Positions 1 through 39,699 of a stretch of 64,000 nucleotides of DNA are shown one piece after another; positions within the stretch are counted from its first letter, which is position 1; every line of letters begins with the position of its first letter. This DNA is from Spirochaetia bacterium. GTDB lineage: Bacteria > Spirochaetota > Spirochaetia > SZUA-6 > Bin103. The notes under the pieces were generated by a model. It had not been told where the DNA came from, ran no database searches, and was given only the letters and a program-made list of their open reading frames with translations. Location: assembly GCA_965262935.1 (NCBI GenBank), contig OZ253572.1, forward strand, positions 6,462,066-6,526,065, given 5' to 3'. Both the position numbers and the translations under genes were made by a program.

Positions 1-908
1 CTGCGGGGATTGAATGTCGCCCCGGAGCCAGTTCCGCCAGTGGCATCGACCCCGCTGGAGCGTCTGCTGGAGGAGTTTACCGGCTTTCTGCTGCGACCAG
101 CTACCAGTGGATGGCTCGGGCATTTCTGTCGGTTCGGGGGCAACAGGCCCTCGATTTGGACCGTCTTGGAGCCGACGACGTGTACGCTTTCCTGCTCACT
201 GAAGCCAACCAACGCAGTGCCGGCTCGCTCAACAACATCGTGACGGCGCTACGGGCGTTGCTTCGTTTTCTGCACCTGCGCGGCTACACCGCGCAGTCGC
301 TGGCGGAGGCGGTGCCGCGCGCGGCCACCCGCTGGAGCGGGCCACCGCAGCCGCTGTTGGATGGCGACGACGTGACGCGCCTGTTGGCAAGTTGTGATCG
401 CCGGACCAACGCGGGGCGGCGTGATTACGCGATGCTGACAGTATTGGCGCGGTTGGGACTGCGCGCCGCGGAGGTCGCCGCGCTCAACGTCGATGATGTC
501 CACTGGCGAGTCGGGGAAATCATCGTATGCAGCAAGGGCGGCCAGCGTGACCGGCTGCCGCTACCCGACGACGTGGGCCAAGCGCTCGCCGCCTACTGTC
601 GGCGTGGCCGCCGTCGCGGTGAGGACCGCCATCTGTTCCTGCAGGTGCGTGCGCCGTACCGAGGGATGGCGCCGAGTGCCGTCTCGGAAGTGGTGGCGCG
701 GGCATGTCGGCGTGCCGGACTGCCACCAGTCGGCGCGCACCGACTGCGGCACGCCGCTGCCACCGCGCTACGGCGCGCCGGGGTGCCCTTGGCCGAAATC
801 AATCAACTGCTGCGTCACCGCTATCTGGCGACCACCGCACGGTACGCGCACGAAGACCTCGATGCACTCGCCGAGGTGGCTTGTCCGTGGCCGGGAGGTG
901 CAGCGTGA
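1..908 (+). CDS. tyrosine recombinase/integrase, 5'-partial (frame 3 is open to the window start). First member of a recombinase-in-trio (RIT)-like array.
   Basis: Catalytic boxes are present: LGLRAAE (Arg), SKGGQRDR (Lys), HRLRHAAAT (His-x-x-Arg/His), LATTARYAH (Tyr). A core-binding domain lies upstream. There is no in-frame stop back to nt 3. The stop overlaps the next gene start (GTGA). Confidence 0.75.
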   Translation, partial: AGIECRPGASSASGIDPAGASAGGVYRLSAATSYQWMARAFLSVRGQQALDLDRLGADDVYAFLLTEANQRSAGSLNNIVTALRALLRFLHLRGYTAQSLAEAVPRAATRWSGPPQPLLDGDDVTRLLASCDRRTNAGRRDYAMLTVLARLGLRAAEVAALNVDDVHWRVGEIIVCSKGGQRDRLPLPDDVGQALAAYCRRGRRRGEDRHLFLQVRAPYRGMAPSAVSEVVARACRRAGLPPVGAHRLRHAAATALRRAGVPLAEINQLLRHRYLATTARYAHEDLDALAEVACPWPGGAA

Positions 909-1561: not shown

Positions 1562-2456
1562 CACCTTCCGGCTCCTGCTCGCGTTCACCACTGCCCGGCT
1601 CGGCAAGACGCCGTCGCAATTGCTTCTTACCGATCTCGACGTGACCGTGATCGACGCATTCCTCAACCATCTCGAACATGACCGTGGCAATAGCGCGCGC
1701 ACCAGGAACGCCCGTCTGGTCGCGATTCATTCTCTGTTCCGCTTCGCCGAGCTGCGCCATCCTGATCACGCCTACATGATCCAGCGAGTGCTCGCGATCC
1801 CGGCGAAGCGACAGCAGCGCACCGAAGTGAGCTTTCTGACCCCTATCGAGGTCGATGCGTTGCTCGCAGCCCCCGATCGTACTACGCGCATCGGTCGGCG
1901 CGACCATGCGTTGCTCGTCCTGGCTGTGCAGACCGGCCTGCGTGTTTCCGAACTGGTCGGCCTACGCCGCTGTGACGCCCATCTCGACCGTGGCGCTCAC
2001 GTACGCTGCCACGGCAAAGGACGCAAAGATCGCGTCACGCCGCTTGCCGTCCAGACGGTAGCGGTGCTCCAGGTGTGGCTCCGCGAACTCGCTGGCGGCC
2101 CGCACACCGCGCTGTTTCCCAGCCAGCTCGGCCGTCCCCTCAGCCGTGACGCGGTCGAGCGTCTGCTGGCCAAGCACACCCGCGCTGCCGTGCTCGCGTG
2201 CCCGTCCCTGGCCACCAAGAGGGTCTCACCACATGTACTGCGCCACACTGCGGCGATGCGGCTCCTGGAGGCGGGCGTTGATACTTCCGTGATCGCACTG
2301 TGGCTCGGTCACGAGAGTGTTCAGACAACCCAGGTCTATCTCCATGCCCACCTCGCACTCAAGGAACGCGCTCTGGCCAAAACTGCTCCGGCCCACACCA
2401 CTCCCGGTCGCTATCGTCCACCCGACGCACTGCTCGCCTTCCTGGAAGCCCTGTAA
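1512..2456 (+). CDS. tyrosine recombinase (XerC/D-like), complete. Third gene of the trio.
   Basis: N-terminal AAYRDTFRLLLAF core-binding motif. Catalytic boxes GLRVSE (Arg), HGKGRKDR (Lys), HVLRHTAA, GHESVQTTQVYLH (Tyr). TTG start per ORF track. Homology-like sequence continues a few codons upstream, but no start codon is found there. Confidence 0.8.
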   Translation: MLGEREASPHTVAAYRDTFRLLLAFTTARLGKTPSQLLLTDLDVTVIDAFLNHLEHDRGNSARTRNARLVAIHSLFRFAELRHPDHAYMIQRVLAIPAKRQQRTEVSFLTPIEVDALLAAPDRTTRIGRRDHALLVLAVQTGLRVSELVGLRRCDAHLDRGAHVRCHGKGRKDRVTPLAVQTVAVLQVWLRELAGGPHTALFPSQLGRPLSRDAVERLLAKHTRAAVLACPSLATKRVSPHVLRHTAAMRLLEAGVDTSVIALWLGHESVQTTQVYLHAHLALKERALAKTAPAHTTPGRYRPPDALLAFLEAL

Positions 2457-2641
2457 CTATGCCGACCCCTGCGGCGCGTTCACCGCCGTTGCACCTGCTG
2501 GAACACACCGAATTCCCGCCCGCCTCGATCACGCGGCATATTCGGTCGGTCGGCATAGGAACTGCACCTTCAGATCCAGCGTCTGCTATTGCCCGCCAAG
2601 TGAGAGTTCCTGGTTTTGTACAACCCCGCCAGGGGGCGTAG

Positions 2642-3352
<711 letters not shown>

Positions 3353-5901: not shown

Positions 5902-8900
5902 CTACGGGAGGTTCAGGGGTATGTCGACCTCGCTCTCCGGTATGCGGTACGCCCGGTAGCTCCAGGCATCCTCACCGGCCACGCGCATGTTCATCTCCAG
6001 GTGCGCAGTGCCGGTTACGGGGTTGACCTCGCTCACCGCGATTGTCTTGTCCAGCGCGACCGTGCGGCCGGTGGCGCTGCCGCCCCAGCTAATCAGCCAA
6101 TGCACGCTGCCGACGAAGTCTTCGAGCACGTGCACGCCGCCCCGGTAGGGGAAGTAGCCGTGCGTGGCAGGCAGCCGGTATTCGCGCTCGTACTCCGCCT
6201 GCGTTCCGGACGATATGTCGTACTCCACCGCGCGCGAGAACGCGTTAGAGTCCTTCCTGGGGCCGATGCACTGTACGCCGTTGTCGTACATTACGACGGT
6301 GTTGGTAGAGGTCAGCGTGACGTGGTGCGGTCCGCAGAACTCCTCGACGACGGCATTATCCGAATGCTCGACCAACTCCAGGAACTCGGTCGTGGAACTC
6401 TCCGGCGGCGCGGTGCCGCCGAGCTTCCACTCGACAGCGCCGGTCGTTCCGTCGATCCGCAGCACCTGCGAGCAACCGCGGGACGACACCACGAAGTCCC
6501 CGTCTGCCAGCAGTTGCAGCGAATTGAATTGAGCATAGCCCGGCGGATACGACAACCCACCTCGGAGGAACATCCCGACCTTGCAATCGGTGCCCCACTG
6601 GAGCACGTCTCTATGGGTCCAGGAGTTCCACGTGAACTCGGACACGCCGATCGCACCCGCGCTCCTGCGCTGGATGGCCGAGTCGGCAACCTGTTCGGTT
6701 TCGGTTCCTCCGTGGTCCGAGAAATCGCGCGGCTCGTCATCGTAGTAGGACAGCATCGCGTAGTCCCCGTCAGCGGCAATCTGAAAGTCGTGGCCATCGG
6801 TCTGCGACAGCGGCGACACCGTGGTGAGGGTAGCGGTCACTTCGAGCCGCTCGTTGAGCAGGTCTATCTCCCAGTTTCCGAACGGAGAGTCGTTGACGTT
6901 GAACACCTCCCTTCGGGCCACCGAGAAGCGGCTGTTGCCGTGGGGCTTGAAGTCCATCACCCAGAAGTTGGTATCCGTGAGCAGACGATGGAACCGCGGC
7001 ACGCCATTGTTGTCGACCATCGCCATGAACATGGTGCGGCTGCTGTAGCTGCCGTAGGCTGGCGTGAGGAGCAGCAGCCCGTCCTTGACCTGATCGGTCC
7101 TGGTCAGGATTTCGATGGTCGGGAAGGCGGCGGGCAGGCAGTGCACGACGTAGGTCCTGGTGTCGCCGGCGTCACTGACTTCGATCGCCAGGTCGTGGTC
7201 GCCGCCGACCGCGACACTTGCGTTCAGGATCCCGGTAGTGGATACCACGTTGTCGGCGGTATCGGCGCGCAGCAGCGTGAGTTGCGCGCCGTCGCGCCCG
7301 GTCGCTGCCGCGACGGTGAGCGTCGGCGAAGTGTTGCAGGTCAGCGCGTAGTGCAGGGTGTCGGCGTCGAACGTCGGGTACATGGCGCCGCCGCCGGTCA
7401 CCGCCAGGGATGAGAGCTCAAGCGCAGTCGAATCCAAGGGGTCCTCGGGGTCGACGGGATCCACCAGGTCCACCGGGTCCGTGGTAGTCGTATCGCCATC
7501 GTCGGCGATCGTGCCGGTGGCGCTGGCGTCGGACACGGTGGCGCCCGCGGGGTTGCTGAGCGTAACCGTGAACGTCTCGGTTTCCTCGGCGGTGCTGTCA
7601 TCCAGAATCGCTACATTGACGGTCGCCGTCGTGGCGCCGTCCGCGAACGTCAGCGTGCCGTTCGCGGACGTGTAGTCCGCTCCGGAGGTGGCGCTCCCGT
7701 CCGCGGTCTCGTACGCCACCGTGACCGTACCTCCGCTCGCCGGATCGAGTCGCACCACGAACGGCATGCTGCCGTCTCCCGAGCCCTCCGTCAGACTCCC
7801 GTTGCCGATGCTCAGCTCCGGTAACTGGTCGTTGTCCGCGATCGTCCCGGTTCCCTGCGCGGTGGCCACGGTCGCGTTCACCGCCGCCCGCAGGGTGACC
7901 GTGAACTGTTCGGACGGCTCGTCCAGCGTGTCGTCGACTACCGTTACTGCGATCGTCCGGCTCGTGGTGCCGGCACGAAACGTCAGCGTGCCGCTCGCGG
8001 CCGTGTAGTCCGAACCGGCCGCGGCGCTCCCGTCCGCCGTCGTGTACTGCACCGTGACCGTGCGTCCGCTCGCCGCGTCGAGCCGCACCACGAACGGCAT
8101 GGTGCCGTCACCCGAGCCCTCCGTCAGGCTGCCGTTGCCGATGCTCAGCTCCGGTGCCTGGTCGTTGTCCGCGATCGTCCCGGTTCCCTGCGCCGTGGCC
8201 ACGGTCGCGTTCACCGCCGCCCGCAGGCTGACCGTGAACTGTTCGTCCGGCTCGTCGATCGCGTCATCGGCAATCGGCACCGTCACCGTCCGCACCGTGG
8301 TGCCCGCGCCGAACGTCAGCGTACCGCTCACCGGCGCGTAGTCGCTCCCGCCCGTGGCAGTCACGTCCGCCGTCCCGTATTGCACCGTCACCGTGCGCCC
8401 GCTCGCCGGTTCGAGCCGCACCTCGAACCGCATGCTGCCGCCGCCCGTGCCCTCGGTTAGCCCGCCGTTGCCGATGCTCAGCCCAGGCAGCGCATCCTCG
8501 TCCTCGATCCGCCCTGTCGCCGTCAGCGTCGCCCCGCCGCCGGCAAGTTGCGCGTTGTCGGCGTTGCGCAGTGTCACCCTGAACACTTCGGTGTCCTCGT
8601 TCATGCTGTCGTCGTTCACGGTCACTGCGACCGTCTGCGCCGCCGTCGACCGCGCCGGGAACCGCAGCATGCCGCTCGCCGGCGTGTAGTCCACCCCCTC
8701 GGTGGCCGTGTCGCCGCTCGAGTCGGTGGCGTAGTCCACGGTCACGACCTCGTCGCTGGCCTGGCTCAGGGTCACGGCAAACACTATCCGGCGCGCCTGC
8801 TCGGAGGCCTGCGCCGGCGCCATCGCCAGCGTCGGTACGTCGTCCTCCACGATGATCACCCTGACCACCGGGCCGGTTACGCCGTCGTAGCCGCCGCCGC

Positions 8901-9774
8901 TCGCCGTGTGCGCAAGCTCCACCGCGATGTCGGCCAGCGCATCGATGTCCTGCTCCGCCGTCAGCGTCACCTGCCGAGCGTCTCTCCACTGCGCTGGCGC
9001 GAACACGAACTGCTCCGGGGCTATGGTCAACTCCGGTGCATCCGCCGCGGTCACGGTTACCGGCGCCGTCGGCCGTGACCCGAGCCGTACCTCGTAGCTC
9101 GCGCTTTCTCCCTCCGTCACGAACAGCTCCAGCGGCTCGATCGCCAGCGCACGGGCGTCATCGTCCTGAATCGTTCCGGTCGCCGTTGCCGACGCCAGTG
9201 TCGCCCCTTGTGGGTCGCTGAGCCGCACGGTCAGGGTCTCACCCGCCTCGTCTACCTCGTCGTCCACGAGCCGCACCTCGATCCGCTGCGCCGTGGTCGA
9301 CTCGGCCGGGAATGTGAGCCGGCCGCGCGCCGCCTGGTAGTCCGCTCCCGCCTTCGCCGTGCCCTCCACGGTGTCATAGGCCACCGTGACCGCGGCGCCG
9401 GCCGTCCCGCTCAGGCTCACCGTGAAGCGCAGCACGCCGTCAGACTCTGCTGCGCCTGCCGCCGCTATCGCCAGCACCGGCGGCCCTTCCGCCGGCGCGA
9501 CGGGCGTGCCGCCCGGCTGGTCCACCGGCGTGCTCTCCGGCTGCGCGCTGTCCGGCTGTTTCGCGGCCTCGACGTGAGCCATCTGGCACCCCGCCAGCGT
9601 CAGCGCCAGCGCCAGCGCCAGCAGTAGCGGGACAGCGGCCGACCACAGTGCTGCAGGCAGGAGCAGGCGCCGCGCTGCCAGCCGAAACGGCGACCAATCT
9701 GCCGAGCCGCCGCCGGGTGTCTGTGCGGCGCTCTGGGCGCTCTGCGCGCTCTGGCTGGAGACTTTCTGCAACAT
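5902..9774 (-). CDS. large lipoprotein (1290 aa). Contains ~7 Calx-beta repeats, a cadherin-like beta-sandwich, and a C-terminal arylsulfotransferase (ASST)-like beta-propeller domain.
   Basis: Lipobox LTLAGC. Repeated G.L.F..G.T...V.V.I.DD..DEP.E.F.V.L units with near-identical copies. A LSSLAVTGG...HYAL motif. C-terminal ~500 aa carry GHDF, WNSW and FCGPHHV motifs shared with the paralog at 10474. Confidence 0.8.
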   Translation of the reverse strand: MLQKVSSQSAQSAQSAAQTPGGGSADWSPFRLAARRLLLPAALWSAAVPLLLALALALTLAGCQMAHVEAAKQPDSAQPESTPVDQPGGTPVAPAEGPPVLAIAAAGAAESDGVLRFTVSLSGTAGAAVTVAYDTVEGTAKAGADYQAARGRLTFPAESTTAQRIEVRLVDDEVDEAGETLTVRLSDPQGATLASATATGTIQDDDARALAIEPLELFVTEGESASYEVRLGSRPTAPVTVTAADAPELTIAPEQFVFAPAQWRDARQVTLTAEQDIDALADIAVELAHTASGGGYDGVTGPVVRVIIVEDDVPTLAMAPAQASEQARRIVFAVTLSQASDEVVTVDYATDSSGDTATEGVDYTPASGMLRFPARSTAAQTVAVTVNDDSMNEDTEVFRVTLRNADNAQLAGGGATLTATGRIEDEDALPGLSIGNGGLTEGTGGGSMRFEVRLEPASGRTVTVQYGTADVTATGGSDYAPVSGTLTFGAGTTVRTVTVPIADDAIDEPDEQFTVSLRAAVNATVATAQGTGTIADNDQAPELSIGNGSLTEGSGDGTMPFVVRLDAASGRTVTVQYTTADGSAAAGSDYTAASGTLTFRAGTTSRTIAVTVVDDTLDEPSEQFTVTLRAAVNATVATAQGTGTIADNDQLPELSIGNGSLTEGSGDGSMPFVVRLDPASGGTVTVAYETADGSATSGADYTSANGTLTFADGATTATVNVAILDDSTAEETETFTVTLSNPAGATVSDASATGTIADDGDTTTTDPVDLVDPVDPEDPLDSTALELSSLAVTGGGAMYPTFDADTLHYALTCNTSPTLTVAAATGRDGAQLTLLRADTADNVVSTTGILNASVAVGGDHDLAIEVSDAGDTRTYVVHCLPAAFPTIEILTRTDQVKDGLLLLTPAYGSYSSRTMFMAMVDNNGVPRFHRLLTDTNFWVMDFKPHGNSRFSVARREVFNVNDSPFGNWEIDLLNERLEVTATLTTVSPLSQTDGHDFQIAADGDYAMLSYYDDEPRDFSDHGGTETEQVADSAIQRRSAGAIGVSEFTWNSWTHRDVLQWGTDCKVGMFLRGGLSYPPGYAQFNSLQLLADGDFVVSSRGCSQVLRIDGTTGAVEWKLGGTAPPESSTTEFLELVEHSDNAVVEEFCGPHHVTLTSTNTVVMYDNGVQCIGPRKDSNAFSRAVEYDISSGTQAEYEREYRLPATHGYFPYRGGVHVLEDFVGSVHWLISWGGSATGRTVALDKTIAVSEVNPVTGTAHLEMNMRVAGEDAWSYRAYRIPESEVDIPLNLP

Positions 9775-9883
9775 GCTCGTCCGTGCTACGATTGTACCGT
9801 TGGTTCAGGTGTGCGTCTCGGGCGCAGCGGACGTAATGCACCATATCCGCACCGCCGCAGGCTGAAGGAGTGAAGCAAATCGC

Positions 9884-10459
9884 ATGGCACAAACAGGACT
9901 GCTCGACAGGGCCGCATGCAGGACGCTGACAGGCGCCGCCATGGGGATGGTTCTCGGGATACCACTGCTGTTGAGCGGCTGTGGTGCCGCCACCCCGTTC
10001 AACCCCATCTTGCTTGAGATCTCGGAACACGTTGCTACCGGCCCCGACTTCCTGGCAGACGGGCGTATCGAGAGCGTGCACGATGTCGACTATTTCGAAA
10101 TCCTGATCAGGCGGGAGTTGGCATCCGTGATCGTGATGACCACGGGCACTACCGATACCGCTGGTGCGGTGCAAACGGTAGACCGAATGGAGATCAAGGA
10201 ACAGTGTGAGGGTGAAGAGCCCGCGCGGCCCTGCATCTTCTCCTACGACGCGGACACCGCGCACAACGTGGAGCGCTCGGACGCGTTCAACAGCATGGAA
10301 CCGTCGGGCAACTTCGTATGGGAGGGGAACCTGCCGGGTCCCGACGGCGATGAAGAATATCGCACCTACTACATTCGAGTGACGGGACAGCGCGGGTCGA
10401 CCGGCGACTACGTGTTGACCGTCGAGCTCAACGAGGGCGAAGGCCCGATGTACTCGTAG
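9884..10459 (+). CDS. lipoprotein with a pre-peptidase C-terminal (PPC)-like beta-sandwich domain
   Basis: GAAGGAG RBS. Signal peptide with lipobox LLSGC. DVDYFEI...GDYVLTVEL pattern typical of PPC domains. Confidence 0.6.
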   Translation: MAQTGLLDRAACRTLTGAAMGMVLGIPLLLSGCGAATPFNPILLEISEHVATGPDFLADGRIESVHDVDYFEILIRRELASVIVMTTGTTDTAGAVQTVDRMEIKEQCEGEEPARPCIFSYDADTAHNVERSDAFNSMEPSGNFVWEGNLPGPDGDEEYRTYYIRVTGQRGSTGDYVLTVELNEGEGPMYS

Positions 10460-14643: not shown

Positions 14644-14892
14644 TGTTCGGATGCTTCGGGTCAGAGGACTATGGCCGCCAGCGTTTCGTCCGCTAGCTTC
14701 TCTCGTAGATCGCGCGGCGCGGGGATCACTGCCATTCGGAACGAACATTACAGGCTGGTGCGGTTGGAGTCAATGAATTGTGCGGGGGCTGCGGGTGCGC
14801 GGGTCTTGCATCGAACCCAGGGGCCGGCAGCGGGAGCCGAGGCCGTTGCGCCTGGCGGCGCTGGCCGTTGCGACTCCCGCTGCCGGCAGCCG

Positions 14893-15291
14893 TTACGAGG
14901 CCAGCTCGGCGGCCGGCTCTTCCTTGTCGGCGGTGGCGGACTCCTGATCGGAGCCCGTTGCGCGCCGCTGCGGCTGGAATTCGACGTGCTCGGCCACGAT
15001 CACCAGCTTGGCGCGCGCGTTGCCGTCACCGTCCTCCCAGCGTTCCTGCTTGAGGCGGCCCACGACGCGCACGCCGCGGCCCTTGGCGAGGTGCTCGGCG
15101 CACACGGTCGCCAGCTTGCCCCAGGTGGTGGCCTCGACGAAGGACACCTCCTCGTGGCGCTCGCTGTCCACCTTGTAGGAGCGGTTGGACGCCACCACAA
15201 GCGTGCACACCGCAGTCCCCTTCGGCGTGTAGCGGATCTCGGGATCCCGGCACAGGTTCCCTTCCAGCAATACGGAGTTGAGATTGTTCAC
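14893..15291 (-). CDS. ssb: single-stranded DNA-binding protein
   Basis: LEGNLCRDPEIRYTPKGTAV...ATTWGKLA...GRLKQERWEDGDGNARAKLVIVAEHVEF, a classic OB-fold SSB pattern, with an acidic C-terminal tail. Confidence 0.85.
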   Translation of the reverse strand: MNNLNSVLLEGNLCRDPEIRYTPKGTAVCTLVVASNRSYKVDSERHEEVSFVEATTWGKLATVCAEHLAKGRGVRVVGRLKQERWEDGDGNARAKLVIVAEHVEFQPQRRATGSDQESATADKEEPAAELAS

Positions 15292-15422
15292 AACAACCCT
15301 CCTGATATAGTCGGCGGGACCGGCGCCGCAGTGGCTTGTCCCGCTCTCGCTATCTATAACGGGCTCCGGGCGGTGCCGCTTCAGGGGGATGCAACGATCG
15401 AAGGTAGGTCTACCAATAGAAA

Positions 15423-15462
15423 ACGGCGCGTCCCCCGAAGGAGACGCGCCGTCATGGTTAGC
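15423..15462 (-). terminator. rho-independent terminator downstream of the 15478..16917 gene
   Basis: Perfect 10-bp GC-rich inverted repeat (ACGGCGCGTC / GACGCGCCGT) with a 4-nt loop, followed on the minus strand by TTTCTATT. Confidence 0.5.
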
Positions 15463-15477
15463 GAGAGTTGCGAAAAC

Positions 15478-16917
15478 CTAGTACTTGATCTTGGTCCAGA
15501 GGCTGACCACACCACTCTGGGCCGCATTGGCGCCAGAATCGATGAGCTGGCCGGTCTTCCACTTCAGGCCGAACGTAGTCGCCGGAATCGCCTCGGTCAG
15601 GACCGCCCGTACCTCAAACGCCACGCTGGCGTCACCGCCATCGAGCTGATTGACGGTGACCGTCGTGCCCGGAGTGAGCGTGCCGCCGAACGTGTCGCTC
15701 AGGTGGTAGTCCAGCTTGCCTTCCACGAACAGATCCGACTCGTCGTTCACGTCCTGCGCGGCGGCCTCTGCTGTGTCGCCGTTGGTGATGTCGAACATCC
15801 CCCACGTCAGCGACAGGTCGAGACTCTCCACGAGACCGTTCTTGTCGGACAGGTTCACCTTTACGTCAGTGGCGACCGATGCCACGTTCGAGAAGATGAA
15901 GTCCGACTTGAGGGTGGTGTTCGGGGTCAGCGTAACGGTCGCGTTACCGCCCGCTTCCCAGTACATGGCCTCGTTTACGTCGGTATCCACGTTGTCGTCT
16001 TCCTGGGTCATCTGAACATCGGCACCCGCGGAGAGGGAGACATCGCCGAAGTCGGTCGTCAGCTTGGCACCGATGCCGGTGTCATCATCCTTGTCGCTAT
16101 CTTCGGGTTCGTCACCATTTTCGAGGCCTTGCACAAACGCCAAGTCGAGCGTGGCCGGTCCGACGTTTACCTTCAGATCGGCACTGATCGCGTAACTGCC
16201 GTCGTGAGCAGCCTTGGTCTCATCCAGATACTTGGTAGCGTCAACGTCTTTGACACCGTCCTCGGACTCGGAGTCATACGCCTCCTCGGAGAGGATCCCC
16301 ACCGCGATGCTCAGGTCGGCGGTGGTGTAGCCGACCGTGACGCCGTGGCCGTTTAGGTCCAATCCAACATCCTTATCCGCATCATGACTCTCGGCCGCGC
16401 GGTCGTCGTCCTCATCGTCCTCAATGTGTGGGATCAGATCGGCCTTGCTTGCAGGCGCGGCGAATATCTGCAGCCAGAGCGGGCCGTTCTTGAGCGTGGC
16501 GACGATGTCCGGCTCCACGACATACAGCTTGCTGCGCCCCTTCTTCTCTTCGACGCCCTTTAGATCAGGCATCGTTTTGCCGTCTGGGACCGACGCGGTC
16601 GTAGTCACGAACTCGGTGGAGTCCTCGTCGTCACTGTTGATGACGATCTGGAAGTCGTTCAACTCGATCGAGCCGTACCATCCTCCTGACATGTCGACCA
16701 TCTCGGAGTTGTTGGTCGACTGCTTGGCGACGAGCACGATCTTGATGTTGGCGCTGGACTCGTTCTTGAATCCGAACTGCTCATCATCGATGTCGTAGCC
16801 CGCAGTGACAGTCGCATCACCGGAGATGCTGAAGTTCGTTCCGATTGCCATTTGCCCATACAGGCCGGCAGAGCCCGCGGCAAGTAGCACCACTAGCAGA
16901 AGTGAGAGTTTCTTCAT
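15478..16917 (-). CDS. secreted, very acidic protein with a C-terminal aromatic residue. Putative outer-membrane beta-barrel or porin-like protein.
   Basis: Strong RBS AAGGAGGAAGTG before the ATG. Signal peptide MKKLSLLLVVLLAAGSAGLYGQ. Alternating hydrophilic/hydrophobic strands. Ends ...SLWTKIKY. Local GC is markedly lower than the neighbours. Confidence 0.6.
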   Translation of the reverse strand: MKKLSLLLVVLLAAGSAGLYGQMAIGTNFSISGDATVTAGYDIDDEQFGFKNESSANIKIVLVAKQSTNNSEMVDMSGGWYGSIELNDFQIVINSDDEDSTEFVTTTASVPDGKTMPDLKGVEEKKGRSKLYVVEPDIVATLKNGPLWLQIFAAPASKADLIPHIEDDEDDDRAAESHDADKDVGLDLNGHGVTVGYTTADLSIAVGILSEEAYDSESEDGVKDVDATKYLDETKAAHDGSYAISADLKVNVGPATLDLAFVQGLENGDEPEDSDKDDDTGIGAKLTTDFGDVSLSAGADVQMTQEDDNVDTDVNEAMYWEAGGNATVTLTPNTTLKSDFIFSNVASVATDVKVNLSDKNGLVESLDLSLTWGMFDITNGDTAEAAAQDVNDESDLFVEGKLDYHLSDTFGGTLTPGTTVTVNQLDGGDASVAFEVRAVLTEAIPATTFGLKWKTGQLIDSGANAAQSGVVSLWTKIKY

Positions 16918-17524
16918 CACTTCCTCCTTCACTTATTGCCGGGGCCTATTACATCGGGGCCCTTAGCTGGGCCAACGACCCGCAGAACCCTCGCCCCCGC
17001 TATCCGATGGCGCAATAATGCATTGCCCAATCGGACGTTGTCAACCTGTTGCGCCCCGGAAATCGAGTAGCCGCTCACCTTGCGGTCAGCGGGCGCACGA
17101 TCAGTCTCCAGAACTGGTCAACTCCAGGATACTCCTACAGTAACGCCAGCGCAACCGCCAGCGCAACAGAGGGAGAATATCACGAAGCCACCACTGTGTA
17201 AACAGTCACCGGAACGGGCATTATGCCCGCACGTCCAAACAATTGCAAGCGGCCCGCCTCCTTTGCGGAAGCCGCACCTTGTACCAGGATGCGAACGCTG
17301 TCAAACACGCGTTCTCCGAGTGTATCAATGCAATAGTCATGCCAAGCTGCGATGGTGGAAAAAGGACCGTGGCAGGCTACCACAAGGGCGGCGCACACGG
17401 TAATCATGCGTCTCATAGGTGACATTTTTGTAGGAAATGATAGCAAAGGCTACGCACACGTAGGGTAAGGACCTTGCGAAACAGGTTGACCGGCTGCGGC
17501 GGCGGTCGTAACATCGCAATTCGC

Positions 17525-21475: not shown

Positions 21476-22105
21476 TCAGCGCAGGCCTCCGATGCGCGCC
21501 GTGACGGCGGCGTACAGCAGGGCGGCCACCTGCGCGGCCCGGTACGGGTACCCGGCCGCGGCCAGCGTGGTGCAGAACGCGGCGTGGCCGCGGCCGCGGC
21601 GATAGTCCGGCACCTGGCGCGGGAACGCCAGGAAGCGTTCGAACTCGGCCGGATCGTTGTTCACCAGCAAGCTGGCCTGATAGAACAGGATGCGGCGCCG
21701 GCGAAACACGCTGGTGCCGGCGATCTTGCGGTCGGCGATCGCCAGGTCGGAGATGCCGCGCTGTTCGATGCCGCGCACGCCGGCGCCGCGCAGCGCGTCG
21801 ATCAGCCAGTCGTTGACGGCATGGGCGTACTCGCGGTTGCGGTACGGGTGATCGACCTCGGTGACCAGCGCCACCACCACTTGGCCGGGACCGAGCAGCA
21901 CCGTGCCGCCGCCGCCGCGCCGGCGCCGGCTGTCGATGCCGGCGGCCGCCGCCGCGTCGCGATGCACGTCCGCGGCCGGGTCGCCGGCGGCGCCGAGCAC
22001 CACCACGCGCCGCTCGGGCTCGTACACCCGGAACTGAGGCTGCCGGGTCGCCTCGAAGGCGGTCAGCAGATCGTCGTTCTCGAATTGCGCCGTCACCGCC
22101 CGCAC
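21476..22105 (-). CDS. biotin/lipoate A/B protein ligase family protein (LplA/LipB/LipM-like catalytic domain)
   Basis: RRRRGGGGTVLLGPGQVVVALV and KIAGTSVFRRRRILFYQASLLV correspond to the GGGAV(Y/L)HD.GN and K(I/V)SG.AQ motifs of the lipoyl/octanoyl transferases. Confidence 0.5.
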   Translation of the reverse strand: MRAVTAQFENDDLLTAFEATRQPQFRVYEPERRVVVLGAAGDPAADVHRDAAAAAGIDSRRRRGGGGTVLLGPGQVVVALVTEVDHPYRNREYAHAVNDWLIDALRGAGVRGIEQRGISDLAIADRKIAGTSVFRRRRILFYQASLLVNNDPAEFERFLAFPRQVPDYRRGRGHAAFCTTLAAAGYPYRAAQVAALLYAAVTARIGGLR

Positions 22106-22118
22106 CGCTACAAGCGCG

Positions 22119-23342
22119 TCAGGCGCCGAAGCGCGCCACCTTGCCGGCGTGGCCGAGGGCGATCGCCATCAGCGCCCGACCCGGCACCACGCCCCAGGCG
22201 CCGGCCGTGCACGCGCGCTCGCCGAACTCGCGCACCGCGTCCGGCCGCGCGCCGGCGGCGTGGATCAGGAACGGCACCGGGTGCGCGGTATGGGAGCGCG
22301 CCACGCTCGGCGTTGAGTGATCGCCGGTCACGATCACCACCTCCGGCGCGCCGGCGAGCAGTGCCGGCAGGGCGCGGTCCACCTTCTCCACTTCCGCCAC
22401 CTTGGCGTCGAAGTCGCCGTCCTCGCCGGCGGAGTCGGTATACTTGTGATGGACGAAGAAGTAGTCGTGATCGGACCAGGCCGCGGCCAGCGCCCGGCTC
22501 TGCGCATCCAGGTCGGCGAGGCCGTCGATCGCCTCCATGCCGACCAGCCGGCTGACCCCCTTGTAGTCGGGGTACACGGCAAGCGCCACCGGGCGCAGGC
22601 CGAAGCGCTCGGCAAGGCCCGGTATCGCCGGCAGTTGCGCGAAACCGCGCAGCAGCACCTCGTTGGCCGGCGCCGCACCGTTCAGCAGCTCACGCGCCCG
22701 GTCCACGAACGCTGCCACGACCTGCGCGGTGTGCTCCGCCTCCGGCGCGGTGGCGCGCGGCGGCAGCGCTGCCACGCCGGTCCGCTGCGGATCGGTGTCG
22801 GACACCCGGTCGCTGAGACCGGCGCCGCGCAGCACCACCACGGCCCGGTAGTCGCGCACCGGGCGCACCGCCACCTCCACGCCGGGCAGCTCGATGCTAT
22901 CCAGCCGCGCCGCCAGCCGCGTGCACAGCTCGGTGGGGATGCGCCCGGCGCGGCGGTCGGTCACCGCGCCGGCGGCGGCGCGGGTGGCGAAGTTGAGGCG
23001 CGCCGCCACGTCGCCGCCGTCGATCGGATAGCCGATGCCGAGCGCCGCCACGATGCCGCGCCCGATCGGGTAGCGCAGCGGATCGTAGCCGAACAGCGCC
23101 AGGTGCCCGGGCGCCGAGCCGGGAGCGATGCCGTAGTCGACCGGCACGTGCAGGCCGCATTCGGCGCCGGCGGCGAGGGCGTCGAGGTTGGGGGTACGGG
23201 CCGCTTCCAGCTCGGTCGGGCCACCGGGCGCGCGCGGCAGCCCGCCGAGCCCGTCCATCACCAGCAGCAGGATGCGCCGGTCGTTGGCGGTCTTGAGTTG
23301 CGCGAGCGGGTCGCCCGCGGGGCGGTCATTCTGTATTGCCAT
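22119..23342 (-). CDS. apgM: cofactor-independent phosphoglycerate mutase, archaeal type
   Basis: LLLVMDGLGG and VIVTGDHSTP motifs; ~400 aa, typical of ApgM. Confidence 0.75.
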   Translation of the reverse strand: MAIQNDRPAGDPLAQLKTANDRRILLLVMDGLGGLPRAPGGPTELEAARTPNLDALAAGAECGLHVPVDYGIAPGSAPGHLALFGYDPLRYPIGRGIVAALGIGYPIDGGDVAARLNFATRAAAGAVTDRRAGRIPTELCTRLAARLDSIELPGVEVAVRPVRDYRAVVVLRGAGLSDRVSDTDPQRTGVAALPPRATAPEAEHTAQVVAAFVDRARELLNGAAPANEVLLRGFAQLPAIPGLAERFGLRPVALAVYPDYKGVSRLVGMEAIDGLADLDAQSRALAAAWSDHDYFFVHHKYTDSAGEDGDFDAKVAEVEKVDRALPALLAGAPEVVIVTGDHSTPSVARSHTAHPVPFLIHAAGARPDAVREFGERACTAGAWGVVPGRALMAIALGHAGKVARFGA

Positions 23343-23378: not shown

Positions 23379-24053
23379 TTAGCAAGAGGCAGCTTGCCGG
23401 AAGTAGGGGCACAGGTGGGCGACCACGCAGCGCTCGCAGGCCGGGCGGCGCGCGTTGCAGCAGCGGCGGCCGTGGTAGTTCACCACCGCGGACAGCTCGC
23501 TCTGGTGGCGCTCCGGGATCAGCGCGCGGATCTGTGCCTCCACCCGGTCGGGGTCGGTGGCGTCGGTGAGGCCGAGGCGGGTGGCGACGCGGCGGAAGTG
23601 GGTGTCCACTACCACCGCCGGCTTGCCGAACCAGTGCGCGAACATCACGTTGGCGGTCTTGCGGCCCACCCCGGGCAGCGCGGCGAGTTCCTCGATGGTG
23701 GCCGGCATCTCGCCGCCGTGGCGGTCCAGCAGGGCATGCGCGCAGGCGATCAGGTTGCGCGCCTTGTTGCGGAAGAAGCCGGTGCTATAGATCTCCCGCT
23801 GCAGCTCCTCCTGCTCGGCCGCGGCCAGCGCGGCGGGGTCCGGATAGCGCCGGAACAGGCCCGGCGTGACGGCGTTGACCCGTTCGTCGGTGCACTGCGC
23901 CGACAGGATGGTCGCCACCAGCAGCTCGAAGGCGTTGCGGTGGCGCAGCGGGCACGGCGTGTCGGGGTATGCGCGGCGCAACGCGGTACGGATCTCCCCC
24001 GCCCGAGCGCGCTGTTGCGCGCGCGTGGCCACTGTCACCGCACCCTCATGCAC
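23379..24053 (-). CDS. nth: endonuclease III
   Basis: LVATILSAQCTDERVN, helix-hairpin-helix LPGVGRKTANVM, and a C-terminal 4Fe-4S cluster C-x6-C-x2-C-x5-C. Confidence 0.9.
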   Translation of the reverse strand: MHEGAVTVATRAQQRARAGEIRTALRRAYPDTPCPLRHRNAFELLVATILSAQCTDERVNAVTPGLFRRYPDPAALAAAEQEELQREIYSTGFFRNKARNLIACAHALLDRHGGEMPATIEELAALPGVGRKTANVMFAHWFGKPAVVVDTHFRRVATRLGLTDATDPDRVEAQIRALIPERHQSELSAVVNYHGRRCCNARRPACERCVVAHLCPYFRQAASC

Positions 24054-24087
24054 GGTTCCGCGGCCTGCCCGGTGCTTGAGCGCGAGC

Positions 24088-24477
24088 TCACGGAGGCAAC
24101 GCGCAGATTTGCCCCTTGGTTACCTCGTTGTAACGACCGACCAGGAGGTCACGGATTTCGCACTCGGGCTCGCCGACAGCCTTGTAGATCCAGGCGAACA
24201 TCGTCCGCAACGAGGAACACGCGTCTTGTCGGGACAGCACATGAGGAATTGCGAGTCTCCCGATGATCATGTTGACTAGAAAGTGCACGGATGCCCGACG
24301 CGACTGACTCAAGCTAAGGATCGTATCCAGAGCGCGCCGATAACGGTCAAAGATCTCTTGGATGTAATCCGACCTATCAGCCTCGCAATCGTCGACCAAG
24401 AGGACAAACTTGTCATCGGAAGAGAGGTAGTGACGGGCCGGCAAACCAATTTCTGTCTCGTCCTTGTCGGGAATCAT
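24088..24477 (-). pseudogene. DUF4276/RloB-like protein, paralog of 39145..39699; likely remnant
   Basis: KFVLLVDDCEADRSDYIQEIF aligns with VQLVVLCEDQQQRTFILQFL. RRASVHFLVN aligns with RRHVSQALIV. PECEIRDLLVGRYNE aligns with PTWRIETWLAYLNGE. Low-GC context. Confidence 0.4.
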
Positions 24478-24545
24478 CTTGCCTCTACCGACCATCTGCA
24501 GCTGGCGTTTTTCCGATCTTGGCGATCGTTGCCCGATTCTTCTGA

Positions 24546-24743
24546 TCACTCTGAAGGTGCACACTCCGGTTGCTTGCGTATCGCGCAATCCCGAAAGAAG
24601 TAGAGTGAGTCGAGCAGCGTGGACTTGCCAGCGCCGTTGGGTCCGAATACAACATTGATCGGACCCACGTCGAGCTCCACATCGGCGAGAACTCGGTAGT
24701 TCTGTACGCAAATTCTTGTCAGCCCGCCCAAAATCACCTCCAT
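24546..24743 (-). pseudogene. N-terminal 66-aa stub of an AAA_21/AAA_15-type ABC ATPase (Walker A only)
   Basis: MEVILGGLTRICVQNYRVLADVELDVGPINVVFGPNGAGKSTLLDSLYF then a stop. Same architecture as the N-terminus of 38003..39157. The rest of the ATPase is absent. Confidence 0.5.
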
Positions 24744-24942
24744 CGTCGTCGATCCGCGATGACAGCTCGCGTTACACGTAGTACCGGAGTCGCAGGAAGT
24801 ATACCAGTGCATGGAGAGCCCGAGAAGCTGCCACGGACGGTCTGGACCGCCTTTGCTCTGTGTAGCAGCGCGGTGTGCGGCTGGCGGCCGGAGGCCAATG
24901 ACGGCATAGTAGACAGAACGGCCCTGCAACTTTACCGGAACC

Positions 24943-25863
24943 GTGCGCAAGAGATTACCAACTGAACCAGCGGGCGGCGGCGGGCGGCGGGTGGTGGCCC
25001 TGACCGGGGCCAGCCGCGGCATCGGCCTGGCGACCGCGGGAGCGCTGTGCGCCGCCGGCTACGCGGTGGTGGCGGGGGCGCGCGATCCCGGCGCCATCGC
25101 GGCGGCGGGACTCGGCGCGCACGTGCGCGCGGTGCGCCTCGACCTGACCGACGGGCACTCGATCGAGCGGTTCGCGGCCGCAGTTGGCGCCGCGGGAGGC
25201 GGCGCGGCTGGTGGCGCGGCGCCCGGCGGCGGCCTGGCGGCGCTGATCAACAACGCCGGCGTCGGGGCGCTCGGCGCGGCCGAGGAGTTCCCGCTGGAGC
25301 GCGCCCGCGAGCTGTTCGAAATCAACCTGTGGGGGGCTGCGCGGCTGGCCCAACTGCTGCTGCCGCGGCTGCGCGCGGGCGCGGCGCCGGAGCGGCCCAC
25401 CTGTCTGGTGAACGTCGGCTCCCTGATCGCCGACTATCCGGTGCCGTTCCACGCCCTGTACGCCGCCTCCAAGGGCGCCCTGCGCGCCTACACGCTGGCG
25501 TTGCGCGGCGAGCTGGCCGGCCACGGGGTCGCGGTGGTGCTGCTGGAGCCGGGCGACATCGCCACCGGCACCACGCCGCTGCAGCACGCCGCGCCCGGCT
25601 CCCCGTACGGCGCCGCGTTCGATCGCGCAGCCGCGGCGCGCGCCGCCCGGATGGCCGCCGCGCCGGGGCCGGACGCGGTGGCGCGGTGCGTGCTGCGGGT
25701 GCTCGGCCAACGGCGGCCGCCGCCGATTGTCGCCTGCGGCGGCGCCGCGCCGCTTCTGCGCTTCGTGCGGCGCCTGCTGCCTGACCGCCTCGCGGCGGCG
25801 CTGACGCTGCGCGCCTACGGTCTCGCGCGCCCCGCAAGCGCGCCACCGGATGGTCCACTTTGA
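24943..25863 (+). CDS. short-chain dehydrogenase/reductase
   Basis: TGASRGIG, NNAG, YAASK motifs. True start may be the internal GTG near 24991 (VVALTGASRGIG). Confidence 0.8.
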   Translation: MRKRLPTEPAGGGGRRVVALTGASRGIGLATAGALCAAGYAVVAGARDPGAIAAAGLGAHVRAVRLDLTDGHSIERFAAAVGAAGGGAAGGAAPGGGLAALINNAGVGALGAAEEFPLERARELFEINLWGAARLAQLLLPRLRAGAAPERPTCLVNVGSLIADYPVPFHALYAASKGALRAYTLALRGELAGHGVAVVLLEPGDIATGTTPLQHAAPGSPYGAAFDRAAAARAARMAAAPGPDAVARCVLRVLGQRRPPPIVACGGAAPLLRFVRRLLPDRLAAALTLRAYGLARPASAPPDGPL

Positions 25864-28099: not shown

Positions 28100-28172
28100 G
28101 GGCGATTAACTCAGCGGTAGAGTGCTACCTTCACACGGTAGAAGTCACTGGTTCGATCCCAGTATCGCCCAA
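28100..28172 (+). tRNA. tRNA-Val (anticodon CAC)
   Basis: Cloverleaf read by eye. Acceptor stem GGGCGAT/ATCGCCC. D-arm TAACTCAGCGGTAGAGTG. Anticodon arm CTACC-TTCACAC-GGTAG. T-arm GGTTCGATCCC. CCA is not encoded. Confidence 0.85.
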
Positions 28173-38002: not shown

Positions 38003-39157
38003 ATGATAAAAAGACTGTACGTCGACAATTACAAGTGCCTCGTCAATTTCGACCTGCCGTTACAAGAGTTGTCCCTGCTGCTAGGACCGAGCGGTACTGG
38101 AAAGACCTCTGTGCTCGACATCATTTTCGCCTTGAGAAGGCTTCTCTCTGGGGATGCACGAGTAGCCGATCCTGACATTTTCCCTGACCGAACCCTCACC
38201 TGTTGGCAGAGTCGTGAACTACAGGTCTTCGAGATTCAGGCGTTCTTGCAATCAGAGACATTCACCTATCGACTCGAAGTGGAACATCAGCGGTCCGCGC
38301 ACTTGTCGCGTATCAGCCGCGAAAAGCTGGAGGTGGAGGGGACACCGTTATTCGATTGTGTGCAAGGGGAAGTGCAACTCTTTCGCGACGATCCCAGTGG
38401 TAGGACAACCGAGGGACCAGTCTATAGCACAGACTGGAGGGAGTCGGCTCTGGCCAGAGTCGCTCCGGGGCGCTCCAATGAACGCCTTACCCGCTTCCTT
38501 GAGTATATGGGACGAGTGCTCGTGTGCGGCGTCAATCCTCCTGTTCTGCAGGCGGAATCGACTGAGGAGAACTCGGTGCTGCAACGAGACGCCCGAAACT
38601 TTGCCGATTGGTACCGGCACACGCTGCAGGAACGCCCGGACCTGTATTTCGAACTCAAGAAGACACTGACCGATGTGATCGGCGCCGGATTTGACGGGAT
38701 CCGGCTTGAGAGAGTTGGCACGGAAACCCGCGCATTGATGGTTGCGTTCGCCAATCAAGCAGACACGGATTCCGGCCTAACCTACCCATTGCGTTTTGAC
38801 CGCATTTCGGATGGCCAGCGCGCGCTTATCGTGTTGTACAGCCTCATTCATCTGGCAGGAGGGGGAGGATACACGTTATTCCTTGATGAGCCCGAAAACT
38901 ACGTCGCACTAAGGGAGCTTCAGCCATGGCTTATGAGTCTTGAGAACGCCTGCGGAGACGTCGTATCGCAAGCCGTAGTGAGTTCTCATCATCCCGAATT
39001 AATCGACTATCTGGGATACGAGAGCGGCATTATGTTGCAGCGCGAAACATCCGGAGTTATCACGGTGAGCCGCCCACAGACTAAGTCAGGAGACGGGACG
39101 GAAGATACAATCGGTCTGAAACTCTCCGAATTGGTCGCCAGAGGTTGGGAACAGTGA
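38003..39157 (+). CDS. ABC-type ATPase of the AAA_21/AAA_15 (OLD/AbiLi/RloA-like) class. Putative abortive-infection ATPase.
   Basis: Walker A LLGPSGTGKTSVL. Signature/Walker B region ISDGQRALIVLYSLIHL...YTLFLDEPENYV. H-loop SSHHPEL. Lower GC than flanks. Stop overlaps the next gene start. Confidence 0.8.
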   Translation: MIKRLYVDNYKCLVNFDLPLQELSLLLGPSGTGKTSVLDIIFALRRLLSGDARVADPDIFPDRTLTCWQSRELQVFEIQAFLQSETFTYRLEVEHQRSAHLSRISREKLEVEGTPLFDCVQGEVQLFRDDPSGRTTEGPVYSTDWRESALARVAPGRSNERLTRFLEYMGRVLVCGVNPPVLQAESTEENSVLQRDARNFADWYRHTLQERPDLYFELKKTLTDVIGAGFDGIRLERVGTETRALMVAFANQADTDSGLTYPLRFDRISDGQRALIVLYSLIHLAGGGGYTLFLDEPENYVALRELQPWLMSLENACGDVVSQAVVSSHHPELIDYLGYESGIMLQRETSGVITVSRPQTKSGDGTEDTIGLKLSELVARGWEQ

Positions 39158-39699
39158 GCAGACGGGTCCAGCTCGTCGTATTGTGCGAAGACCAACAGCA
39201 GCGGACGTTCATACTCCAGTTCCTCAAGAAAACAAGAAGGAACGACCCTGTGCTCCGTGTAGAGATGTGTCCCAGAAACTGCGGATCAGCCGAGCAGTAT
39301 GTACGGAAACGCTTCCCGAAAGAAGTTGCCGAACACCACCGGAGACACGTGTCTCAAGCGCTGATCGTAATGCTTGATGGCGACAACTGCGGCGTCGCTG
39401 CACGCATCGCTGAGCTTGAGAAAGCGTGCCGTAAGGCCAAAGTACGCGCCGGACATCCGGAAGAAGGAGTCCTGGTAGTCGTGCCGACATGGCGAATCGA
39501 AACGTGGTTGGCGTATCTCAACGGCGAAACCGTTGACGAGTCGAGGCGGAACTATCCGCACTTACTCCGTCCACGAGATTGCGGCCCCCATGTGACTCAA
39601 CTCGTCGATATGTGTCAGAGACGTCAGTTGCGGGAACCTGCACCGGATTCCCTCGTAGCGGCTTGCACTGAATACCGCCGCTGGATTGCTAACGTTTGA
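39145..39699 (+). CDS. DUF4276/RloB-like small protein, translationally coupled partner of the ATPase
   Basis: TTG/GTG start overlaps the ATPase stop (GTGA). N-terminal VQLVVLCEDQQQRTFILQFL and C-terminal VVVPTWRIETWLAYLNGE resemble the VEG.TE...F and E.W motifs recalled for DUF4276. Confidence 0.55.
   Translation: MGTVSRRVQLVVLCEDQQQRTFILQFLKKTRRNDPVLRVEMCPRNCGSAEQYVRKRFPKEVAEHHRRHVSQALIVMLDGDNCGVAARIAELEKACRKAKVRAGHPEEGVLVVVPTWRIETWLAYLNGETVDESRRNYPHLLRPRDCGPHVTQLVDMCQRRQLREPAPDSLVAACTEYRRWIANV

Follow-up and report, generated by a model that had tools for sequence, protein, structure and literature searches.

A probable deletion pseudogene of an ABC ATPase and DUF4276 cassette, next to nth in an uncultured Spirochaetia bacterium

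Two short open reading frames lie in a patch of low GC content between the gene of a short-chain dehydrogenase (SDR) and nth in the genome of a Spirochaetia bacterium. Are they small genes, a decayed copy of a module found elsewhere in the same DNA, or the remains of something else? The DNA analyzed here, called the window, is a stretch of 64,000 nucleotides (contig OZ253572.1 of assembly GCA_965262935.1, positions 6,462,066 to 6,526,065), and all coordinates refer to it unless a contig is named. The window also holds a cassette at 38003-39699, made up of an ATPase (the 38003 ATPase) and a small downstream partner (the 39145 protein).

An earlier note, made from the sequence alone, took the two short reading frames for a second, degraded copy of that cassette, left by an independent acquisition or by an internal duplication followed by decay. 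The analysis below leads to a different origin. Very probably, the locus is a non-functional pseudogene, inactivated by deletion, of a horizontally acquired cassette that encoded an ATPase and a DUF4276 protein.

The locus and its neighbours

The features of the locus are the following.

24943..25863, plus strand: SDR gene (adh_short, 3e-32), divergent from the cassette
24744..24942, minus strand: upstream leader of the cassette, between the SDR start (24943) and the ATG of the stub; GC 0.62
24546..24743, minus strand: ATPase stub reading frame, ATG at 24743, 65 aa plus stop
24574..24576, minus strand: junction of deletion 1; ATPase homology runs to 24576 and DUF4276 homology starts at 24573
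24088..24573, minus strand: DUF4276 remnant in a single frame, stop at 24090..24088
24268..24269, minus strand: junction of deletion 2; 156 bp gone, in frame
23379..24053, minus strand: nth, endonuclease III (HhH-GPD, 3.4e-26), a synteny anchor
22119..23342, minus strand: iPGM gene, a synteny anchor
21476..22105, minus strand: LplA-like gene, a synteny anchor

On the minus strand of the window, the order is thus stub, remnant, nth, iPGM and LplA. The cassette has a GC content of 0.549, compared with 0.72-0.785 in the flanking genes, so the low-GC patch described earlier is real. Followed along the sequence, GC content is 0.51-0.62 from 24088 to about 24940 and 0.72-0.79 on either side.

The leader shows weak homology to the sequence 5' of an intact ATPase gene on a metagenome contig, L001, which is described below. 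Positions 1..101 of L001 match window 24968..24880, and positions 282..330 match 24773..24725. The leader probably belongs to the acquired segment or to its promoter region.

No tRNA gene lies at the cassette site, the sole tRNA of the window being a tRNA-Val at 28100. A search around the insert and the deletion junctions for long direct or inverted repeats and for the ends of mobile elements found just short repeats at chance level.

Two reading frames, one cassette

The product of the first reading frame is MEVILGGLTRICVQNYRVLADVELDVGPINVVFGPNGAGKSTLLDSLYFFRDCAIRKQPECAPSE. The earlier count of 66 aa is one residue too long, and the Walker A motif reported with it (GPNGAGKST) is indeed intact, preceded by a strand-loop. 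The stub matches the Pfam families AAA_15 (8.5e-10), AAA_23 (3e-8) and AAA_21 (9.8e-8), and the PADLOC models HEC-01A (1.1e-13) and AriA (5.8e-12); against the NCBIfam model MAD3 it scores far under the cut-off. It covers just the first 45-55 positions of these profiles of ABC-type ATPases: residues 8-52 correspond to AAA_15 positions 3-48, and HEC-01A positions 9-57 are also covered. The idea that the stub might be unrelated to an ATPase can be set aside, since it is a genuine ATPase N-terminus. Its codons 1-56 represent codons 1-52 of the L001 ATPase with four extra codons at the N-terminus. Its final ten codons (RKQPECAPSE) come from the DUF4276 gene, which is translated in the wrong frame past the deletion junction. 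Codons 53-394 of the ATPase are missing from the window copy, and with them the signature motif, the Walker B/D-loop and the H-loop.

The second reading frame is more difficult to identify. Searched on its own, the remnant has no match in Pfam, NCBIfam or PADLOC, and its identity came from a homologue search only. The translation of 24091..24561 found 208 proteins in a collection of 5.8 billion, nearly all of 250-260 aa and mostly of 251 aa. Many of them (most of those listed) carry precomputed matches to PF14103, the DUF4276 family. The best full-length homologue, P0002 (E 7.5e-79), is identical to the remnant at 144 of 166 aligned residues in a pairwise alignment, with one clean gap of 52 residues. 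This gap corresponds to P0002 residues 141-192, between FLVNM and IIGRLAIPHVL. Because P0002 itself scores 24.5 bits against PF14103 (3.6e-5), under the Pfam gathering cut-off of 30.2 bits, the remnant is assigned to DUF4276 on the strength of the many homologues with precomputed matches.

Thus the downstream reading frame is a real gene fragment, as had been proposed, and it is longer than the part first recognized. Homology begins at P0002 residue 38-39 or so (ATGVC[ST]FRVIRRIGQ), at window position 24573 and not at 24477, so that its first part shares DNA with the tail of the stub, in another frame; the reading frame 24088..24477 is merely the part that follows an internal ATG. Altogether, what remains of the 251-aa protein is codons 39-140 and 193-251, about 60% of its length.

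What the missing parts contributed can be judged from the intact family. The AlphaFold model of P0002 (pLDDT 87) predicts a four-strand alpha/beta core. In family alignments, invariant acidic residues are found after beta1 (E26), after beta3 (D99/D100/E102) and after beta4 (E142), and a further conserved block, GDVE, at 165-168. Intact homologues have the full Toprim catalytic set, which is incomplete in the window copy because the E26 region is deleted. The remnant lacks beta1 together with E26, E142, Y144 and G165-D166-V167-E168. It keeps the DD-x-E motif, with the invariant L101 changed to C (VDDCEAD). Of 98 columns with at least 90% conservation, 62 are kept, 35 are deleted (E26, E142, D166 and E168 among them) and one is changed, which is L101. 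With 35 of these 98 columns deleted, the remnant cannot be a working Toprim-like protein, and without beta1 and roughly one third of the conserved columns its fold is unlikely to form.

Intact orthologues and an empty site

Full-length versions at the same locus in relatives, which the earlier note had suggested looking for, are found on two metagenome contigs. L001, a 103.9-kb contig from ENA, carries a 394-aa ATPase, DUF4276, nth, iPGM and the LplA-like gene in this order; the ATPase and DUF4276 genes overlap by 4 nt. L002 (8.7 kb) starts inside the ATPase and continues with an intact 251-aa DUF4276 gene, an nth relic, iPGM and LplA. Coverage is 3x for L001 and 4x for L002, and both have frameshifts of their own, L001 in DUF4276 and L002 in the ATPase, which may be sequencing errors or independent decay.

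The L001 ATPase has a complete set of motifs (Walker A GPNGAGKST, SDGYLQ, LFDEPET and ATHSP). It matches AAA_21 at 7.2e-29 over positions 1-304 of 304 and HEC-01A over its full length at 6.5e-47. The match of P0002 to HEC-01B is weak (3.9e-5).

L001 aligns to the window in three collinear blocks with 82-83% nucleotide identity. In the first block, window 24773..24576 corresponds to L001 282..479; in the second, 24562..24268 to 1630..1921; and in the third, 24268..23381 to 2077..2944. L002 is 91% identical to the window over 24573..24268 and 94.5% over 24268..24087.

An empty site can be found in L005, a complete MAG chromosome (OZ241863.1) whose iPGM has 84% amino acid identity to that of the window. 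Its gene order is PFK-SDR-nth-iPGM-LplA. The SDR gene lies directly beside nth, separated by 217 bp of GC-rich sequence, compared with 1,026 bp in the window, and nothing of the cassette is seen in this interval. The nearest genome records for the window iPGM are MAGs of Spirochaetia or Spirochaetaceae. L004, which has the iPGM most closely related to that of the window in the genome collection, carries pntB in place of nth and is not syntenic upstream, and is therefore uninformative about the insertion site.

Relatives of this bacterium thus present three states of one site: empty in L005, occupied by an intact cassette in L001 and L002, and occupied by a deleted cassette in the window. The cassette has a GC content of 0.54-0.59 in all three carriers, and their flanks have 0.71-0.79. 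The suggestion that such modules turn over in this lineage therefore holds, since the cassettes vary among close relatives.

The same pair of genes, an ATPase of 393-394 aa and a DUF4276 protein of 252-255 aa with a 4-nt overlap, recurs in unrelated contexts. One copy lies among genes of central metabolism (L097). Another adjoins McrBC and a further AAA_15/AAA_21 ATPase with a small partner (L098). Because it recurs in unrelated contexts, the pair behaves as a small mobile conflict or defence cassette.

The two deletions

Comparison with the intact copies locates both deletions, at junctions that are bridged in L001 and L002 by collinear DNA of 82-94% identity. A loss of about 900 bp of ATPase sequence had been estimated. 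The deletion is real and larger, and it extends into the partner gene. According to blastn, global alignment and the breakpoint sequences of L001, L002 and the window, deletion 1 removed about 1,139 bp (L001 480..1618), that is, ATPase codons 53-394 and DUF4276 codons 1-38. Its junction lies at 24574..24576; a second deletion, of 156 bp at about 24268, had been missed.

At the junction of deletion 1, ATPase codon 52 is followed out of frame by DUF4276 codon 39, and as a result the stub ends in ten unrelated codons and a stop. Two nucleotides at this junction (AA, window 24575-24574) are of ambiguous origin. An imperfect TCTTTCGG(G)AT repeat occurs near both breakpoints. Simple slippage between these repeats was considered as the cause of deletion 1 and rejected, because the repeats sit at different offsets (12 and 7 nt) and so do not explain the junction.

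Deletion 2 removed L001 1921..2076, which is 52 codons in frame, with a microhomology of 1 nt (G). It takes out the conserved LEAYY...GDVE block.

Probable gain and loss of the cassette

The GC content of the cassette, 0.55 compared with 0.72-0.79 in the flanks, indicates horizontal acquisition. A degraded module of an ATPase and a small partner in a foreign low-GC patch is what had been proposed for this locus, and this much is borne out.

The most plausible history begins with a horizontal transfer, which would have placed the cassette between the SDR gene and nth in an ancestor of an uncultured high-GC Spirochaetia lineage. When intact, it would have encoded an ABC-type ATPase of 394 aa (AAA_15/AAA_21, of HEC-01A type) and a DUF4276 protein of 251 aa built on a Toprim-like core. 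OLD, Gabija, PARIS and HEC-01 suggest a mechanism by analogy, in which the ATPase may sense a trigger and then control the Toprim-like nuclease. For the window copy the mechanism is moot, since both genes are destroyed. The intact cassette is a candidate anti-phage or conflict system, to judge by its architecture and by one neighbourhood in a defence island.

Deletion 1 would then have created the 65-aa stub and cost the partner its beta1 strand and first catalytic glutamate, and deletion 2 would have removed the LEAYY...GDVE block. The cassette would have been gained after the split from the L005 lineage and then lost by deletion in the lineage of the window. A clean loss in L005 is less likely than a gain in the clade of the window, the direction being read from GC content and a single empty-site genome.

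The timing of the inactivation can be estimated from the surviving sequence. Compared with L002, the remnant has a dN/dS of 0.345, close to the flanking genes (0.20 for iPGM and 0.31 for LplA). Most of the divergence should therefore predate the loss of selection, which agrees with recent inactivation. The surviving sequence has undergone almost no further point decay, and this again suggests that inactivation was recent relative to the divergence from L002.

Occurrence and possible function of the short reading frames

The degraded state is not confined to one assembly. Exactly the same 65-aa stub is found on at least ten contigs from at least nine ENA metagenome samples; one of these contigs is a long-read assembly of 552 kb at 24x coverage, and several others are short-read scaffolds. 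The same remnant reading frame follows the stub every time, called with a length of 129 aa (135 aa in L003), and gene calls for SDR and nth flank the pair on every contig that extends far enough. DNA could be compared for eight contigs, which are collinear with the window, gap-free at the locus and 99.0-100% identical. On this evidence, the degraded state is real and common in that population. Neither the window Nth nor the 39145 protein in its 184-aa form gave a match when looked up by exact sequence, probably because gene callers chose other start codons.

Could the two short reading frames have been kept because they are useful? The DUF4276 fragment might regulate the other ATPase-Toprim cassette or serve as a decoy for it, or the Walker A peptide might be dominant-negative. 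Both frames are open, the stub is unchanged in amino acid sequence across all these contigs, just one of the 63 conserved columns retained in the remnant is changed, and the overall dN/dS of 0.345 would suit a protein under selection. However, the contigs are 99-100% identical throughout, including the flanks, so that conservation of the stub reflects recency and not selection. The dN/dS value mostly records the time before the deletions, and in the C-terminal block of the remnant it rises to 0.75. In addition, the remnant is short of beta1 and about one third of the conserved columns, and its family has no detectable similarity to the partner in the other cassette. Retention for a function is therefore improbable, and a deletion pseudogene is the better description of the locus.

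Relation to the second cassette in the window

The earlier proposal, a decayed duplicate of the 38003/39145 module that arose by internal duplication or by a second acquisition from the same family, has several observations in its favour. Both modules consist of an ABC-type ATPase and a small downstream partner, in patches with a GC content of 0.55 each. Both the 38003 and the L001 ATPase have the PADLOC HEC-01A model PDLC04182 as their best match. The likeness of the stub to the N-terminus of the 38003 ATPase was correctly seen, with 32% identity over 44 aa (E 7e-7).

However, this likeness is that of nucleotide-binding motifs. When the intact L001 ATPase is compared with the 38003 ATPase, just two stretches align: 57 N-terminal residues with 30% identity (E 4e-6), and 71 residues near Walker B with 27% (E 0.011). 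This speaks against a second copy of the same module.

The small partners fail to align at all. An alignment in three blocks had been described between the remnant and the 39145 protein, and its absence had been named as grounds for giving up the pairing. BLASTP finds a match of 34 residues between regions that are not equivalent, with a non-significant E of 0.10, and the pairing therefore fails on the ground named. Comparison of the two families with hhalign at two alignment depths gives probabilities of 0.5% and 0.1%, and comparison of a profile with a single sequence gives 0.04%. The proteins also differ in length, 251 aa compared with 181-184 aa.

The "RloB-like" label does not survive either. 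The RloB family, PF13707, is matched neither by the remnant nor by the 39145 protein at E <= 1, nor by P0002 at E <= 0.01, nor by sets of 31 and 58 members of the 39145 family at E <= 0.1. The partner at this locus is instead DUF4276.

The 39145 family comprises proteins of about 181-189 aa without a Pfam assignment. A homologue search returned 119 matches, and a profile search of 1.84 billion representatives returned 1,723 representative clusters at E <= 1e-3. The best 150 of the profile matches are close members only, with no bridge to DUF4276. Weak matches hint at a link between the family and Toprim-like proteins: of 58 members, 16 match DUF4276 (best 6.8e-6), 17 match DUF3226 (best 1.8e-6) and one matches OLD-like_TOPRIM. 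In addition, the AF2 model of the 39145 protein (pLDDT 92) has strands and helices in the same order as the P0002 model. For both partners, the predicted alpha/beta core has four strands, and acidic residues follow beta1, beta3 and beta4; in the 39145 protein, these positions are E15/D16, D78-x-D80 and E119-x-W121. The 39145 family is thus probably Toprim-like at the level of the superfamily, as these models and weak matches suggest.

L001 and L002 also carry, at this very site, the locus's own intact orthologue, which belongs to another subfamily. Judged by these comparisons, the two cassettes are of the same architectural class, an ABC ATPase with a small partner that is Toprim-like or, for the 39145 protein, probably so, and share no recent common ancestry. 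Of the two origins suggested earlier, internal duplication is excluded by the lack of significant direct or profile similarity between the partner families, and the comparisons support independent acquisition, in this case of two distant cassettes. Descent of the locus from the 38003/39145 module or its own family is consequently very unlikely.

Other explanations

A more specific proposal is that the 65-aa Walker A peptide and the DUF4276 fragment of 129-161 aa modulate the cassette at 38003-39699, as a decoy or as an inhibitor of self-toxicity. Of 16 contigs that carry the 38003 module, six were examined, and on these it is intact with an identical or almost identical sequence. If modulation were true, the deletions would be an event of domestication and not of simple decay; the chance of this is slight.

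Finally, the metagenomic source of the data, and the probable frameshift errors in the low-coverage long-read contigs L001 (3x) and L002 (4x), might raise the suspicion that the deletions are artefacts of assembly or consensus and that the true genome has an intact cassette, which is barely credible when identical junctions, gap-free relative to the window, appear in independent assemblies made by different methods from different samples and when the 24x long-read contig of 552 kb agrees with several short-read scaffolds.

Significance

By itself, the locus in the window is of little importance, as it is an ordinary deletion pseudogene. It does provide a well-resolved case of the gain and subsequent deletional loss of a small defence-like cassette in a housekeeping setting in uncultured Spirochaetia.

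Annotation. Both short reading frames should be annotated as pseudogene fragments of one ABC-ATPase/DUF4276 cassette and not as genes. The window has two separate cassettes of one architectural class and no duplicate.

Experimental targets. The intact cassette types, and not the relic, are worthwhile targets for experiments. Both are uncharacterised and abundant in metagenomes. One consists of a 394-aa ATPase and a 251-aa DUF4276 protein; the other consists of a 384-aa ATPase and a member of the unnamed, probably Toprim-like 181-aa family, with about 1,700 representative clusters.

Comparison with known systems

AbiL/RloB-type pairs. These consist of an AbiLi ATPase and a partner of the RloB family (PF13707). 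The cassettes have the same architecture, and their ATPases give secondary matches to AbiLi (2e-21 for the L001 ATPase and 1.7e-13 for the 38003 ATPase). In contrast to these pairs, PF13707 is absent from the remnant, P0002, the 39145 protein and 58 members of its family.

HEC-01. [quoted passage not shown] As in HEC-01, the cassette has two genes, the upstream one for the ATPase and the other for a small Toprim-like protein, and the L001 ATPase corresponds to HEC-01A over its full length. Unlike HEC-01, the window copy is a deletion pseudogene, its partner resembles HEC-01B weakly, and the cassette lies outside any Hma system, between housekeeping genes.

DUF4276 and MADS. DUF4276 has been placed in the Toprim superfamily, with a catalytic E and DxD, and has a homologue in the methylation-associated defence system, Mad4 (PMC12065111). 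The intact subfamily described here keeps the corresponding residues, E26, D99/D100/E102 and E142 (cf. PMC12065111). It is longer than the Pfam DUF4276 model, with 251 aa compared with 192 model positions. The cassette differs from MADS in its ATPases, which score 45.7 and 48 bits against the NCBIfam model MAD3 (NF047739), compared with a cut-off of 420. Neither a methyltransferase nor any other MADS gene is found near the cassette, whose neighbours are SDR, nth, iPGM and LplA.

PARIS. In this system, the ABC ATPase AriA is paired with AriB, a Toprim nuclease with a DUF4435 domain (PMC11464382). The likeness of the cassette to PARIS lies in its genes, with no sign of tRNA cleavage or of activation by an Ocr-like trigger; the AriA matches come from generic models of AAA_21/AAA_15 length (PDLC02980 and PDLC02979). 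The partner of the cassette is DUF4276 and not DUF4435, and neither P0002 nor the remnant matches DUF4435 or AriB in Pfam or PADLOC. What the two have in common is an AAA_15/AAA_21 ATPase paired with a separate small effector of the Toprim family, and the ATPases associated with DUF4276 share a tree with the AAA15/21 ATPases of defence systems (PMC11464382).

Divergence of the cassette and its flanks

Synonymous divergence is higher in the ATPase and DUF4276 cassette than in its flanks. Between the window and L002, the closer of two relatives, dS is 0.165 in the cassette (window 24088-24573) and 0.074 in iPGM. Between L002 and L001, the other relative, dS of the DUF4276 gene reaches 0.73; iPGM dS is 0.24 between the window and L001, a different pair. 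The excess over the flanks suggests that the cassette evolves faster, or that it is exchanged among lineages by recombination.

Deletion breakpoints and apparent frameshifts in the cassette genes

An imperfect direct repeat of 10-11 nt, TCTTTCGG(G)AT, is found at window 24577-24600 and at L001:1598-1612 and L002:870-891. The 1.14-kb deletion has one copy 12 nt upstream of its left breakpoint and another 7 nt upstream of its right one. Because these offsets differ, simple slippage between the copies would not produce the observed junction.

The DUF4276 gene of L001 is intact except for a 1-nt insertion (L001:2110-2125) relative to the window and L002. This insertion shifts roughly the last 45 codons, and the aberrant C-terminus of P0109 is the same as frame 0 of the window. 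At 3x coverage, it may be a sequencing error or a case of independent decay. The ATPase gene of L002 is likewise frameshifted.

Gene order around the cassette

L002 is a close relative, its iPGM gene being 97% identical to that of the window at the nucleotide level. Within L002:1540-2122, only a 70-bp 3' relic of nth remains, adjoining the DUF4276 gene, which is intact; an inserted HTH_3 gene precedes iPGM. The opposite end of the 8.7-kb contig (L002:7534-8728) carries a second SDR-nth junction, more divergent (83-85% nucleotide identity) and with no cassette between the two genes. This layout reflects either a rearrangement or a chimeric assembly at 4x coverage.

In L004, whose iPGM is the closest relative in the genome collection (86% amino acid identity), iPGM is preceded at L004:1-716, in place of nth, by the 3'-terminal part of a transhydrogenase gene resembling pntB. 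Thus, the adjacency of nth and iPGM is not conserved across the clade.

Another low-GC locus in the window

A 484-aa ORF (window 15478-16932, minus strand) lies in another low-GC stretch (GC 0.59). Its product combines a signal-like N-terminus, MKKLSLLLVVLLAAGSAGLYGQ, with an acidic composition rich in Asp and Thr, and may belong to the surface or outer-membrane proteins of spirochaetes. Identity between the window and L084 falls to 92% around window 14651-16086 from 99.9% elsewhere; this locus therefore varies between strains.

A homologous cassette in another setting

On contig L098, a homologous ATPase and DUF4276 cassette has a neighbourhood (L098:1-2586 and 8490-10250) that resembles a defence island. 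Upstream of the cassette lie the genes for McrB/McrC; downstream, a second ATPase of the AAA_15/AAA_21 group (431 aa) is encoded together with a 152-aa partner.
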